Notes under the pieces: model-generated
The model's database searches: none
What the model was told of the DNA's origin: nothing
The model's input: the letters and a program-made list of their open reading frames with translations, nothing else
Assembly (NCBI GenBank): GCA_963817525.1
Contig: CAWFOU010000001.1
Span: forward strand, 864,001-928,000
Origin: an uncultured archaeon
GTDB lineage: Archaea; Thermoproteota; Nitrososphaeria; Nitrososphaerales; Gagatemarchaeaceae
DNA length: 64,000 nucleotides
Direction: 5' to 3'
Shown: positions 15,161-18,947 of the stretch, one piece after another
Layout: every line of letters begins with the position of its first letter
Position numbering within the stretch: the stretch's first letter is position 1
Position numbers and translations under genes: made by a program

Positions 15161-15531
15161 TTCTTCTTCTCCCCTACCGTCGTGTCAGCCTGGGCAGCGA
15201 GGGTCGGGCTGGGGGTCGGCTGCGTGACCTCAGGCTCCGGCGCTGCGGCGACGGTCGAGACCGCCCCCGGGACGTCCGTGATGAGCGAAAAAAGCTCCAA
15301 TACCGCCCCGACCGCGATGAGCCCGAACCCGACGAGGGACTCGATGGTGCTCGTGTTGCTGGTGGTCGACGACGCGGAGGACCCGATGGCGAACCGGAAG
15401 GCGGAGGCTGGCGTCGCCGCCGAGGACGAGGTCGTGCCCTTTGTTATCAGGGTATAGAGGGGGCTGGAGGGCAGGAGCAGCAACAGTCCGGCCAAGATCA
15501 CCAGTATGCTGATTACGGCTAGGCGACGCAA
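15157..15531 (-). CDS. small two-TM membrane protein, first gene of the ABC operon
   Basis: Two hydrophobic helices with an S/T-rich loop; ATGA overlap with the ATPase gene. Confidence 0.6.
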   Translation of the reverse strand: MRRLAVISILVILAGLLLLLPSSPLYTLITKGTTSSSAATPASAFRFAIGSSASSTTSNTSTIESLVGFGLIAVGAVLELFSLITDVPGAVSTVAAAPEPEVTQPTPSPTLAAQADTTVGEKKK

Positions 15532-15818
15532 ACCTATCGAGACCTCCGAGTCGAGGTCAGGTTATAGCGCTTTTCCTGAATGGTTCCCAAATCCTTAGTA
15601 AATCTCCCCACGCTCCGCTCTCCTTGCCCTGATGATGGTTTCGGGGCAGCGGACATTAAAGAATCTTAGGTATCCGGCCTCTGCTTCCCCCGCTACGGCG
15701 AGGCGCGACGACCCCTCACTCCCGGGCCCTAGGAATTCTAGTCTTCGAATCCGGCCTCGACGGGGCGCTGTCCGCCACGATAGCTTAAGAACAGACGGGC
15801 ATGGCTTTCGCGTCGGCA

Positions 15819-17660
15819 ATGAAGGTGGCGATAATCACGCGGGACTATCCGCCCGCGATAGGCGGAATCGCCACCCACGTCGAGGGGCTGGTCAAGGCAC
15901 TGAGGAGGCTCGGCGTCGAGGCCGACCTCTACGTGGGGAGGCACGACGTGAGGACCCTCCTCCTCCCCTTCGACATCCCGCTCAAGGAGTACGACGTCGT
16001 CCACGTCCAGAGCCTCCCCTACGGGGCGTTTGTCTGCGGTGTCCCCCTCGTCGTAACCGTTCACTCCCCCGTTCTGGAGGAGTTCGGCCACTACAGGAAG
16101 ACCCTCAAGCTCGAGTCCGTGCCGGCCATAGCCCTGGAAAAGGCGTCGCTCTCGAGGGCCAGAGCTGTCCTCGCGGTCAGCGGCGAGAGCCGCGCGGAGC
16201 TCGTGAGCAGGTACGGGGTGCGCCATGAGAGGGTCCAGGTCATAGGAAACGGCGTAGATAGCGAAAGGTTCTCGGGGCGGAGGGATCCCGACGCGGCGGC
16301 GGCGCGGAGGGTGCTCGTTGTCTCGAGGCTAGAGCCCCGCAAGAACGTGAGGGAGGCAATAGGGGCCGTCGCTGAGCTGCCTGAGGGGACTTGCAACCTG
16401 GAGATAGCGGGGGACGGGTCGGAGAGGGAGGCGCTGGTCGAGCTGGCGAAGAACATCGGCGCGGGCGACTCTGTCCACTTCCTCGGCAGGGTCGACGGGG
16501 CGTCCCTCCCCGAGGTGTACGCGCGGTCCGCAATCTTCCTGACCACCAGCGAATCGGAGGGGTTCGGGCTGTCCCTACTCGAGGCGATGGCTTGTGTTGT
16601 GAGGGGTACGCTCGTATCCACCAGTAACGGCGCCATGCCCATCGAGAACATCAGGAAGGGGACACTAGTCTTGACTCACTCAGGCAGGTATAGACCCGTC
16701 CTTCAGACCTTTGTCGGGATTCGGGGCGGAGTAATGTATGTGATCGAGACTTCGCATGGGCGCTTATGTATTACGCCGACCCATAAGTTCCTGACAAGAA
16801 GTGGCTGGATGTCCGCCGAATCTCTATACTTCGCTTGCAAGTCTGAGCATGCAGCAGAGAGGGTACATCGCCGGCTTCTTCGATGGAGAGAGTCATATGA
16901 CAATAAACATAGTAAGGCAAACGAAGACTTCGAGGCACCTAGGGACCGGGCTTGGAATCCGGCCGATGATAGAGGTCGCTCAGAACTCTCGGCGTCAGGA
17001 AGTTCTTTACTGGATAAAAGGAAAGCTCGGAGGCCGCGTCGTGCCGGATTTACCTCGACACGAATCAAGATTGGTAATCGGGGGCAGACGCTCGGTAGGT
17101 CCCATCTTAGAGACATTATTGCCACTGCTGATTTGCAAGAGGAACGTCGCGATGCTAGTTCTGGAGGTCTGCAACAGGAGGTTGTCATTCGTCCAGAATA
17201 TGCCGGAGGATTGGATTTGGTTTATCGACAAGGCGATCCAGGTGCGAATGATAAATTCGGAATTCAGCCCGGAGCGGCTTCAGAAGGGTGTCGGGAGGCT
17301 GAATGGATTGAAATCGGAAGTATTGAACCGATACAGTATGTCGGGCAAATATTCGATCTCTCCGTAGCAGCAGACAACTCATACGTAGCGAACGGCCTGA
17401 CGGTCCACAACTCCGGCTGCGCGTGCGTGGCATCTGACCTCCCTACCCACAGGGGCCTTATCGAGCATGGCGTGAACGGGATGATATACCGAAATCGGGG
17501 GGAGCTTGTCGCCTGCCTGAAGGAACTCCTATCCTCGCCGGCGAAGGTAGAGAGGCTAGGTGCGGCCGCTAGCCGGGTGGCGAGCGGGCTCACCTGGGAG
17601 AAGGTAGCAATGAAGGTAACTGGGGCCTACGAGAGTGTCCTGCAACGCCCGAAGCCCTGA
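15819..17660 (+). CDS. GT4 glycosyltransferase interrupted by an intein
   Basis: MKVAIITRDYPPAIGG, VSRLEPRKN and EGFGLSLLEAMA|SGCACVASD; removing 273 aa restores an ordinary GT4 of about 340 aa; CTTAAG about 30 nt upstream of ATG 15819. Confidence 0.92.
   Translation: MKVAIITRDYPPAIGGIATHVEGLVKALRRLGVEADLYVGRHDVRTLLLPFDIPLKEYDVVHVQSLPYGAFVCGVPLVVTVHSPVLEEFGHYRKTLKLESVPAIALEKASLSRARAVLAVSGESRAELVSRYGVRHERVQVIGNGVDSERFSGRRDPDAAAARRVLVVSRLEPRKNVREAIGAVAELPEGTCNLEIAGDGSEREALVELAKNIGAGDSVHFLGRVDGASLPEVYARSAIFLTTSESEGFGLSLLEAMACVVRGTLVSTSNGAMPIENIRKGTLVLTHSGRYRPVLQTFVGIRGGVMYVIETSHGRLCITPTHKFLTRSGWMSAESLYFACKSEHAAERVHRRLLRWRESYDNKHSKANEDFEAPRDRAWNPADDRGRSELSASGSSLLDKRKARRPRRAGFTSTRIKIGNRGQTLGRSHLRDIIATADLQEERRDASSGGLQQEVVIRPEYAGGLDLVYRQGDPGANDKFGIQPGAASEGCREAEWIEIGSIEPIQYVGQIFDLSVAADNSYVANGLTVHNSGCACVASDLPTHRGLIEHGVNGMIYRNRGELVACLKELLSSPAKVERLGAAASRVASGLTWEKVAMKVTGAYESVLQRPKP
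16593..17411 (+). mobile_element. class 1 intein (273 aa), no in-frame endonuclease
   Basis: Starts CVVRGTLV (block A), LCITPTHKFL (block B TxxH), GWMSAESL, IFDLSVAADNSYVANG (block F), TVHN|S (block G with +1 Ser); lower GC than the flanks. Confidence 0.93.
16849..17367 (+). CDS. single-motif LAGLIDADG homing endonuclease (I-CreI-like), nested in the +1 frame inside the intein
   Basis: YIAGFFDGES motif; IEVAQ, LLPLLICKRNVAMLVL and IQVRMINS align by eye with I-CreI FQVTQ, LQPFLKLKQKQANLVL and DQIAALND; frame open 16795-17367 with ATG at 16849. Confidence 0.85.
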   Translation: MQQRGYIAGFFDGESHMTINIVRQTKTSRHLGTGLGIRPMIEVAQNSRRQEVLYWIKGKLGGRVVPDLPRHESRLVIGGRRSVGPILETLLPLLICKRNVAMLVLEVCNRRLSFVQNMPEDWIWFIDKAIQVRMINSEFSPERLQKGVGRLNGLKSEVLNRYSMSGKYSISP

Positions 17661-17714
17661 GCCGTGCAGCTTCAAAAGGTCGGCGGGACAACCGTATGAC
17701 GGTCGCATACTGAG

Positions 17715-18947
17715 ATGGGCGAGACTACGAAGCCGCTTCATGACTGGGTGCTCTACGTCACGAACCACTTCACCCATCTTGTCGTCGAGGCGCAGGCGGC
17801 TTCTCCGAGATACCACCTCGCGAGAAAGCTCTCGGAGAAGGGGCAGAAGCTGCTGGTATACTGCCCCATCGGGCGTCATGTTGGGAGTCCTCTCCGCGAC
17901 TTTGTCATCAACCTCTGCCCCAAAAGAATCGTTTCTGGCTACACGGTATACCTCTTCCCACCCGTGATCGTCAGCCCTTCGAGCGCGACCACTCCCTTGA
18001 CTCTGATCATGGGAAGCCTCTTCATCCTTGCCTACCTCACGCTCACGCGAATCAAGGTCGCAGCTCAATACAGCACGACGATTCTCGTGGGGTCAGTGGC
18101 GGCGGTGGTGAGGATGAGAAAGAAGATTCCGCTCGTGGCGAACTACGGTGACCCCGACTTCGCAAGGGAACGCGGGCTAGCAAGACAGGGCTTCAAGTTC
18201 TGCGAAGACCTAGTCATGACCAGACGAAACGCCTTCGCCATGGTCTACGTTGACGAAGTCGTGGGCGAGTACATCAAGGGCAACTTCCCCGTCGAGAGGA
18301 CGCTCTTCCTTCCGAATGGTGGATACGAGGCCGGCTTTGTCCCTCCAATGCCTGATTCTTCGGGCGTTGTCTCGCTGAGAAAGAAGCTTGGATTGGAGGG
18401 CAAGTCAGTGATACTCTATGCAGGTCAGCTGACCGCGGTCTATCGCCTCGACATCCTGGTCTCGGCCGCGCCTTCCATAATCTCGCGGGTTCCAACCGCG
18501 AAGTTTGTGATAATCGGTAGCGGGCCTACCTCCAGAACGCTGAAGCTAGCTGTAAAAGAAGCCCATCTCGAAGACTATTTCGACTTCACTGGCGCCGTTC
18601 CCTACGATGAGCTCAGCCCCTTTCTCGTCCTCTCTGACCTTTGCGTTCAGCTGCTAGACGACTGGTGCATGGGCACCAAGGTCGTGATGTACATGGTCCA
18701 TAGGCGGCCGGTTATCTCAAGCGGCGGCTGGTTCCATAGGTACGGAAGGTTTCTCCGAAACGGAGAGAACTCGATTCTGATCCCTCCTAGCGTCGAGGCC
18801 TTTGGTGAGGAGGCGGTCAAAGCTCTACAGGATCCCTTGCGAAGGGCCAAAATCGGGGAATCGGCCTGGACTACGGTCCACCGATACACTTGGGACGAGC
18901 ACGCGGAAGAGACTCTGAAGCTGCTCCACGCTTCGATTCTCGGCTAG
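17715..18947 (+). CDS. GT4 glycosyltransferase
   Basis: LPNGG, ILYAGQL, IIGSGP and FTGAVPYDEL motifs. Confidence 0.85.
   Translation: MGETTKPLHDWVLYVTNHFTHLVVEAQAASPRYHLARKLSEKGQKLLVYCPIGRHVGSPLRDFVINLCPKRIVSGYTVYLFPPVIVSPSSATTPLTLIMGSLFILAYLTLTRIKVAAQYSTTILVGSVAAVVRMRKKIPLVANYGDPDFARERGLARQGFKFCEDLVMTRRNAFAMVYVDEVVGEYIKGNFPVERTLFLPNGGYEAGFVPPMPDSSGVVSLRKKLGLEGKSVILYAGQLTAVYRLDILVSAAPSIISRVPTAKFVIIGSGPTSRTLKLAVKEAHLEDYFDFTGAVPYDELSPFLVLSDLCVQLLDDWCMGTKVVMYMVHRRPVISSGGWFHRYGRFLRNGENSILIPPSVEAFGEEAVKALQDPLRRAKIGESAWTTVHRYTWDEHAEETLKLLHASILG

Follow-up and report, generated by a model that had tools for sequence, protein, structure and literature searches.

The locus described here raises the question of whether the DNA between the two splicing halves of an intein can be read in two frames, one belonging to the intein and the other to a homing endonuclease. 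The intein lies in a gene for a GT4 glycosyltransferase of an uncultured soil archaeon of the Nitrososphaerota, within a window of 64,000 nt (positions 864,001 to 928,000 of contig CAWFOU010000001.1 in assembly GCA_963817525.1); the window is the whole stretch of DNA that was analysed, and all coordinates refer to it. The features of the element are on the plus strand, and we refer to the frame of the host gene and intein as frame 0, to that of the endonuclease as +1 and to the unused frame as +2. Our answer is that this is most probably (probability ∼0.85) real dual coding with a selected endonuclease. As we understand the element, a class-1 intein sits in a conserved GT4 motif. Frame 0 of the DNA between the splicing halves would yield a stop-free, unconstrained linker of ∼150 residues that joins the Hint halves and would be discarded with the intein after splicing, and the +1 frame would yield a separate single-motif LAGLIDADG protein of ∼21 kDa, predicted to be a homodimer.

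The host open reading frame (ORF), 15801–17660, encodes 619 amino acids without an interruption anywhere in frame. Pfam places GT4 glycosyltransferase domains on both sides of an insert of 273 codons (16593–17411). The N-extein (15801–16592) ends ...GFGLSLLEAMA and matches Glycos_transf_1, Glyco_transf_4 and related families; intein-less orthologues have LLEAM[S/A]|SGC. The C-extein (17412–17660, including the stop codon) begins SGCACVASDLPTH.... The insertion point is three residues past the second Glu of what we take to be the E-x7-E motif of the GT4 enzymes. The insert matches Intein_splicing with an E value of 2.6e-9 over 16593–17411, and also matches Hint_2. Its first residue is Cys, its block B is T-P-T-H (T61-x-x-H64) and its C-terminus, ...DLSVAADNSYVANGLTVHN, closes with His-Asn and is followed by Ser+1. 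C1, T61, H64, D255, H272, N273 and Ser+1 are invariant in all four copies of the element that were compared. The N-terminal Hint half (16593–16835) contains blocks A and B and can be aligned to the DnaB and RecA mini-inteins. The C-terminal splicing half (17295–17411; ...IFDLSVAADNSYVANGLTVHN) contains blocks F and G and can be aligned to the C-termini of DnaB mini-inteins, with the Hint homology beginning at intein residue 235 (nt 17295). Between the halves lies the frame-0 linker of ∼152 codons (16836–17292), which is overprinted on the core of the endonuclease. The intein has a guanine-plus-cytosine content of ∼52%, and the flanking gene one of ∼65%. Cys1, block B, blocks F and G and the exact insertion relative to six empty alleles allow us to classify the insert as a class-1 intein, which is predicted from these features to splice. 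A scan of 15500–18000 against Rfam at E ≤ 1 gave no matches, and thus no sign of a ribozyme or intron.

The +1 frame has its last stop codon upstream of the endonuclease, a TGA, at 16792–16794 in all four copies and is open from 16795 on. The +1 ORF (16801–17367) encodes 188 amino acids, or 172 when counted from an ATG at 16849, carries one LAGLIDADG motif (YIAGFFDGE) and ends with a TAG at 17365–17367. The copies are those of the window, of a genome of the same genus (G012) and of two loci, L034 and L035, which came from one metagenome scan but from separate contig collections. All four inteins are exactly 819 nt in length, align without gaps at 72–79% pairwise DNA identity and have the same two-frame layout. 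G012 has the same GT4 gene and insert, with the intein frame open over 620 amino acids and a +1 ORF that is 71% identical, while L034 and L035 each have a GT4 ORF of 614 amino acids and a +1 ORF of 199 amino acids. Searching 5.8 billion proteins with the intein region gave five matches at E ≤ 1e-5, four of which are the four GT4-intein lineages (100, 65, 56 and 52% identity); no other protein of that kind turned up in this set. The +1 ORF has additional variants in two proteins from short contigs (P0001 and P0002), and a scan of a genome collection returned the G012 contig alone (one relative among 50 pattern matches).

Comparison of the four copies shows that purifying selection changes frame exactly at the domain borders. 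In the N-terminal Hint half the variable columns at positions 1, 2 and 3 of the intein codons number 29, 24 and 61 of 81 each. In the core (16836–17292) they number 100, 55 and 32 of 153, 152 and 152, respectively, an excess that falls on the third position of the +1 frame, and at 17367–17411 they number 3, 1 and 13 of 15 each. When the core is translated in the +1 frame, pairs of copies have a mean amino-acid identity of 0.75; the corresponding values are 0.46 for the intein frame and 0.53 for the +2 frame. The ratio of nonsynonymous to synonymous substitution rates (dN/dS, or ω) was calculated according to Nei and Gojobori for the six pairs of copies. In frame 0 it is 0.13–0.27 for the N-terminal Hint half and 0.04–0.24 for the C-terminal half (17292–17411); the former half is thus selected in frame 0 by its variable columns, its dN/dS and its alignment with mini-inteins. 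In the core dN/dS is 0.10–0.22 in the +1 frame, 0.86–1.20 in the +2 frame and 2.0–3.0 in the intein frame, the last being an expected by-product of selection acting on the overlapping frame. The dS of the intein among the four lineages is ∼0.7–1.65, and the +1 frame has been under purifying selection throughout this divergence. At 17293–17366 both frames are conserved (amino-acid identity 0.72 in frame 0 and 0.67 in +1); here the DNA for the C-terminal helix of the endonuclease also encodes, in frame 0, the strands with which the C-terminal Hint half begins. The segment 16801–16848 is weakly conserved in every frame.

The linker shows a different kind of constraint. A stop codon arises in frame 0 when a +1 codon ending in T precedes a +1 codon that begins with AA, AG or GA. 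Within the core, T is found in 0/37, 0/36, 0/37 and 0/38 of these risky contexts in the four copies, compared with 23/114, 24/115, 27/114 and 25/113 before the other, safe codons (one-sided Fisher p of 2e-4 to 8e-4 per copy; because the copies are related, they do not amount to four independent tests). When synonymous codons were shuffled, 4.5–6.0 frame-0 stops were expected, and only 8, 59, 5 and 28 of 20000 shuffles were free of stops (P = 0.00025–0.003); for the window copy the mean was 5.6 stops, with 8/20000 stop-free. The observed number is zero in all four copies, and the +2 frame has 8–16 stops (16 in the window copy). The intein frame is held open by selection, as a linker without sequence constraint. 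The original prediction, made from the DNA of the window, had counted about 42 codons beginning with AA, AG or GA, none of them following a T, and had expected about six stops with P ∼1e-3. The avoidance and its rough probability agree with the shuffles and with a one-sided Fisher test over 16849–17292 (0/35 risky versus 22/112 other codons; p = 0.0014), but the number of such codons was revised on recounting to 35 in 16849–17292 and 45 over 16801–17366.

Among the intein-bearing alleles the ω of the exteins is 0.11–0.16, and that of the C-extein alone is 0.04–0.19. Purifying selection on the C-extein indicates that the host gene is used downstream of the intein, so that frame 0 is read through and the intein presumably spliced. 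The GT4 frame is open through a complete intein (C1, TxxH, block F, HN|S), as had been proposed, and the further proposal of an endonuclease selected in the +1 frame over an open, throw-away linker is borne out by the four copies, the frame-switching dN/dS, the stop avoidance and the ω of the C-extein.

The +1 product is predicted to be a LAGLIDADG endonuclease with one motif, similar in type to I-CreI and I-MsoI; it would form a homodimer and has putative cleavage activity. A profile built from the two closest copies matched the solved structures of I-MsoI (E = 8e-6), I-CvuI (3e-4), I-TnaI (1e-3) and I-CreI (0.07). The AlphaFold2 (AF2) model, from an alignment of 37 rows, has a predicted local distance difference test score (pLDDT) of 87.7 and a predicted template-modelling score (pTM) of 0.82. 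Its fold is alpha-beta-beta-alpha-beta-beta-alpha followed by C-terminal helices, with a helix at residues 157–183. Foldseek ranked I-MsoI, I-CvuI, I-CreI, I-TnaI and I-Vdi141I at the top, with a probability of 1.00 and 18–23% identity; the template-modelling scores against these homodimeric enzymes are 0.65–0.80 by target length. The chain of 188 amino acids has one LAGLIDADG motif, in which G-x-x-D-G-E is invariant across the close copies. In the 37-row family alignment A24, G25, D28 and G29 are nearly invariant, as are the acidic residue of the motif (DGE) and one Lys, both of which are kept in all copies; we take this Lys to be the counterpart of K98 of I-CreI. A model of two copies in complex gave an interaction score (ipSAE) of 0.73, whereas the highest of its three controls scored 0.01. 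The contacts agree to at least 94% between runs, the pLDDT of the partner is at least 79 and the interface is formed by the LAGLIDADG helix (residues 16–30). Among solved structures, 20 of 30 homodimers and one of 23 monomers reach the mark for this score, although a pass may here show likeness rather than binding, since dimers of the I-CreI type have already been solved. The ORF of 172 amino acids from ATG 16849 to TAG 17367 that had been predicted as a LAGLIDADG protein is thus present, and is identified as such marginally by Pfam, and by the profile against the Protein Data Bank and its fold.

Several observations weigh against dual coding with a selected endonuclease, or against parts of it. 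The known lineages are four only and are mutually kin. The Pfam match of the +1 ORF to LAGLIDADG_1 is marginal, its 23.5 bits (E = 1e-4) barely exceeding the cut-off of 23.1. The AF2 model of the frame-0 intein, for which only four alignment rows were available, has a pLDDT of 34.5 with a minimum of 21–27 in the linker, and is too poor to show either the Hint fold or a disordered linker. As to expression, the ATG at 16849 is found in the window copy alone among the four copies. The conservation of the alternative start at 16801 may partly be a by-product, because this codon overlaps constrained intein codons for Gly-Trp. Inspection of the four-way alignment upstream of 16801 by eye revealed no convincing Shine–Dalgarno sequence or other ribosome-binding site and no convincing archaeal promoter, and no RNA run is listed as containing 16300–17700. 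As to mobility, the extein dS of 0.84–1.7 is equally deep as that of the intein. In four-taxon trees the intein groups the window copy with L034 (support 89/92); the corresponding extein support is 53/33, with p values of 0.25–0.42 for the alternatives in the approximately unbiased (AU) test, and the two topologies are indistinguishable. Finally, among the soil sequencing runs used below as a check on accuracy, X1–X4 may include the source sample of the window, and the run of the second study (X5) has no coverage of 16723–17051.

The first step to be explained is how the +1 protein would be translated. The sole +1 start codon that is conserved in all copies is at 16801–16803 (GTG, GTG, ATG and GTG). 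The intein codon overlapping 16799–16801 varies (Ser, Gly, Asn and Ser), yet always ends in purine-T before a Gly codon, which preserves the start. Given that the +1 protein is made, this conservation favours internal initiation at 16801, which we regard as the more probable route and which could take place on the host mRNA or on an internal transcript. The main alternative is programmed +1 ribosomal frameshifting between 16795 and ∼16840, which would fuse the N-extein and the N-terminal Hint half to the endonuclease. The open +1 frame from 16795, the weak conservation of 16801–16848 in all frames and the lack of a recognized ribosome-binding site or promoter before 16801 would agree with such a shift. 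However, inspection by eye of the conserved columns in 16795–16840 revealed no known slippery or stop-stimulated shift site, and all four copies retain a start codon at 16801 despite changes in the intein codon that overlaps it. The fusion would also place ∼330 extra residues at the N-terminus of a protein that must dimerize through its LAGLIDADG helix, and its relatives are free-standing proteins of 142–282 amino acids. Frameshifting is thus unlikely.

A separate observation concerns 16748–16768. The third positions of the intein codons His-Gly-Arg/Cys-Leu (CAT GGG [C/T]GC TTA, then TG[T/C]) are fixed here in all four copies, compared with 61/81 varying in the N-terminal Hint half as a whole. 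This may reflect a signal at the nucleotide level 35–50 nt upstream of 16801; it is not significant given the number of windows.

If the protein is made, its presumed role would be to cut the intein-less GT4 allele at LLEAM[S/A]|SGC, and repair would then copy the intein together with the endonuclease gene. A GT4 orthologue was found at E ≤ 1e-40 in eight of 23 genomes of the genus (54–96% complete). Two of the eight carry the intein, and the other six have the exact empty site LLEAM[S/A]|SGC in open frames of 348–365 amino acids. On an extein tree of ten rows, from which none was dropped, more than one change is required to explain the four intein-bearing alleles, a single clade of which is rejected (AU p = 1.63e-5), and the intein-bearing L034 is sister to the intein-free genome G003 (support 95/98). 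The patchy presence of the intein on this tree is consistent with gain by homing or with repeated precise loss. Recent homing or transfer was considered and was rejected as a demonstrated event, as the intein dS is as deep as the extein dS.

This raises the possibility that the +1 protein, though expressed and under selection, has ceased to act in homing and has another role such as DNA binding or some benefit to host or intein, like the maturase-like LAGLIDADG proteins of introns. The intein appears to be about as old as the divergence of the alleles, and the long-lasting purifying selection comes without signs of recent spread, both of which would suit such a role. Against it, the motif has kept its catalytic acidic residue in all copies and the conserved Lys is likewise retained; a further argument is the patchy distribution with its exact empty sites, which fits gain by homing or precise loss. 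We consider a purely non-homing role to be quite improbable, and retain a homing endonuclease as the preferred identity of the +1 product.

The relatives of the endonuclease bear on where it came from. When 1.84 billion representatives were searched exhaustively, 66 proteins matched at E ≤ 1e-3 and only three at E ≤ 1e-10; most of the matches are 130–330 amino acids in length. Weaker matches pointed to 13 loci in relatives and metagenomes, of which ten hold a single-motif ORF of 158–282 amino acids from stop to stop, and in these ten no other frame of the same strand is open for more than 77 codons; two of the remaining loci had no match and one had a weak match outside the motif. The genome of the window has eight family matches in total: the GT4 element, five free-standing ORFs, one in-frame domain in an intein-bearing ORF of 1747 amino acids and one two-motif gene split by a frameshift. 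In viral contigs the endonuclease search gave two loci only, at 34% identity, of which the one inspected (L047) is a free-standing gene of 142 amino acids.

Some of these loci have features of their own. The five free-standing ORFs (L050–L054; contigs C1 and C7 of the same genome, outside the window) each have a single motif and 161–268 amino acids, and none is nested in another long frame. Two relatives from the genus, L011 and L012, have an N-terminal stretch resembling a C2H2 zinc finger ahead of the motif. The split gene (L056, 1177–2116 on the minus strand, corresponding to ∼1099.5–1100.4 kb of contig C1) consists of overlapping ORFs of 194 and 150 amino acids in different frames with one LAGLIDADG-like motif each. 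It looks like a free-standing two-motif endonuclease gene that has been split by a frameshift, either as a pseudogene or through an indel in the assembly.

The most informative relative is P0005, a terminase large subunit of 727 amino acids from a metagenome (Terminase_6N, Intein_splicing) with an intein at approximately residues 69–366. It shares 36% identity with the GT4 element in the N-terminal Hint half (E = 8e-12) and 28% in the single-motif endonuclease (E = 3e-18), which according to the deposited protein is in frame. A search of viral contigs with P0005 gave no match. An in-frame single-motif endonuclease is unusual in itself, because this type of enzyme normally works as a homodimer. 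The original prediction had named homologues with the endonuclease in frame as evidence against it; one exists in P0005, distantly and in another host gene, and the three orthologous copies all have the two-frame layout. These homologies show that the composite of N-terminal Hint half, endonuclease and C-terminal Hint half is encoded in a single frame elsewhere and over two frames here. The endonuclease homology to P0005 reaches residue 174 (nt 17322) and thus overlaps the C-terminal Hint homology from nt 17295; the endonuclease helix and the first Hint strands are consecutive in P0005 and share nucleotides in the GT4 element.

From this we tentatively propose that the GT4 element and P0005 may be two states of one intein–endonuclease lineage, in which the endonuclease domain would originate as a free-standing gene with its own translation and a homodimeric product, or would dissolve into one. 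The intermediate would have had a broken host frame, resembling a split intein, that was later purged of stops. As part of the same tentative proposal, the 9–15 codons at 17295–17340 may genuinely code twice, selection acting on the endonuclease helix as well as on the intein strand. On these data either the one-frame or the two-frame state may be ancestral.

The in-frame endonuclease of P0005 makes an in-frame ancestor possible, and with it a decaying relic, in which the ancestral domain was displaced by two compensating frameshifts and the +1 ORF is a functionless pseudogene that has not yet eroded; that no recent homing is visible would agree with this. Such a sequence should have drifted at a dN/dS near 1. 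Since the lineages split (dS ∼0.7–1.65) the +1 frame has instead kept a dN/dS of 0.10–0.22 with no stops and invariant motif residues, while the +2 frame has 8–16 stops; purifying selection over this depth excludes a decaying relic for practical purposes, and we regard it as very improbable.

Contigs from four soil runs of two studies tile 16300–17438 with two substitutions and zero gaps and cover both frame-switch regions, so the compensating indels that the original prediction had asked to exclude do not appear in them. That two such indels near 16830 and 17290 had pushed a normal in-frame endonuclease out of frame would account for a layout that requires exactly two frame switches, in an assembly where indels or pseudogenes occur (for example L056), but its probability is negligible given these gapless contigs, the three other gapless copies at 72–79% identity with identical frames (two of them from separate metagenome contig collections), the frame-0 stop avoidance, which an artefact could not produce, and the other inteins of the same genome (G000; 2.8 Mb in 15 contigs, 95% complete, 8.75% contamination), all of which lie within long open frames of 548–1813 amino acids (28 Intein_splicing matches).

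Downstream of the GT4 gene, the next gene differs between copies. In the window it is a plus-strand ORF of 410 amino acids (17715–18947), and in L035 and G012 it is a different plus-strand ORF, which starts ...LWAPFGSRGDELAEVVGAER or ...LWGPFGFRADELAEVVGAER. The neighbourhood is thus not fully syntenic.

The out-of-frame combination of intein and LAGLIDADG endonuclease had been taken as new in the original prediction, a view that is too strong: the kind of element has already been described for cyanobacterial DnaX inteins and for actinophage inteins, and the GT4 intein is an archaeal addition to this rare set. In the cyanobacterial DnaX intein an out-of-frame LAGLIDADG endonuclease is encoded in a '+2ORF', for which the preprint reports frame-dependent ω, AlphaFold support, a sporadic distribution and 123 sequences with no in-frame homologue in the alignments (Phillips, DeSimone & Gogarten, bioRxiv 10.64898/2026.09.14.751524). 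Like the DnaX intein, the GT4 intein has its splicing halves in the host frame with a LAGLIDADG-type endonuclease in an overlapping ORF between them, a low dN/dS in the endonuclease frame that is inflated in the host frame, and a sporadic occurrence, in which some alleles are free of the intein and AU tests speak against vertical descent; the in-frame stretch of the DnaX intein, which is of low confidence or disordered, may resemble the GT4 linker. Work by Gorbalenya from 1998 is reportedly among that cited in the DnaX preprint. The GT4 intein differs in its archaeal host (Nitrososphaerota), in its location in a GT4 glycosyltransferase gene rather than in a replication protein, in its frame (+1 here, '+2ORF' there), in its single-motif homodimer-type enzyme with ∼9–15 codons that appear doubly constrained against block F, in having a distant in-frame homologue (P0005), as opposed to none in the DnaX alignments, and in being known from four lineages compared with 123 sequences. 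The orientation of the DnaX endonuclease differs between the two preprints, being antisense in one (10.1101/2025.01.02.630785) and in the '+2' frame in the other (10.64898/2026.09.14.751524).

In actinophages, inteins in terminase, polymerase, capsid and ThyX genes contain antisense LAGLIDADG, antisense VSR-like and frame-3 endonuclease-VII-like genes; their proposed origin is invasion by a free-standing endonuclease gene, and they are missed by annotation pipelines (Gosselin, Arsenault & Gogarten, bioRxiv 10.1101/2025.01.02.630785). These inteins share with the GT4 element an endonuclease gene within the intein but outside its reading frame, while the main text of that preprint, whose supplements may list more, gives no sense-strand out-of-frame LAGLIDADG gene and no archaeal case. 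A hidden HNH endonuclease has also been described in the ShiLan insertion (PMC11855218). The ShiLan insertion likewise leaves the host frame open and encodes its endonuclease in a different frame, from a GTG just inside it, with leaderless or internal initiation proposed; unlike here it has no splicing domain, the enzyme is an HNH protein and the loop stays in the host protein, whereas a complete intein would remove the linker of the GT4 protein.

The enzyme itself resembles I-CreI, I-MsoI, I-CvuI, I-TnaI and I-Vdi141I in its one motif, its length (∼150–190 amino acids), its core fold and its predicted dimer through the motif helix, but those enzymes are encoded by ordinary ORFs in group I or archaeal introns, whereas the present one is overprinted on an intein linker and is 18–23% identical to them. 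Canonical intein endonucleases usually have two motifs. With the canonical inteins and P0005 the GT4 element shares the order of N-terminal Hint half, LAGLIDADG domain and C-terminal Hint half; theirs are in one frame and one polypeptide, compared with two frames and, as predicted, two products here. In fractured genes, which are said to have been reported by Dassa and coworkers in 2009, an intein is split and a free-standing endonuclease gene lies between its two parts. The likeness lies in an endonuclease gene between N- and C-terminal splicing halves that would be translated on its own; the difference is that in fractured genes the host gene is in two ORFs and its products are trans-spliced, and here frame 0 is open and the intein is contiguous.

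With the GT4 intein, the range of out-of-frame intein endonucleases now includes the Archaea, a host gene of metabolism (a glycosyltransferase) and a LAGLIDADG protein of the single-motif, homodimer type. Endonucleases of this kind go unannotated because gene callers annotate the ORF of 619 amino acids alone. The linker indicates that ∼150 residues of arbitrary sequence can be tolerated between the Hint halves. P0005 supplies a homologue of the intein in which this endonuclease is in frame, something that the DnaX study reports to be lacking, and with it the model in which the splicing element comes first and the endonuclease invades later becomes directly comparable between two states. If the tentative proposal of one lineage in two states is true, the GT4 intein would become the first system from an archaeon, and outside replication genes, to allow such a transition to be rebuilt by experiment.

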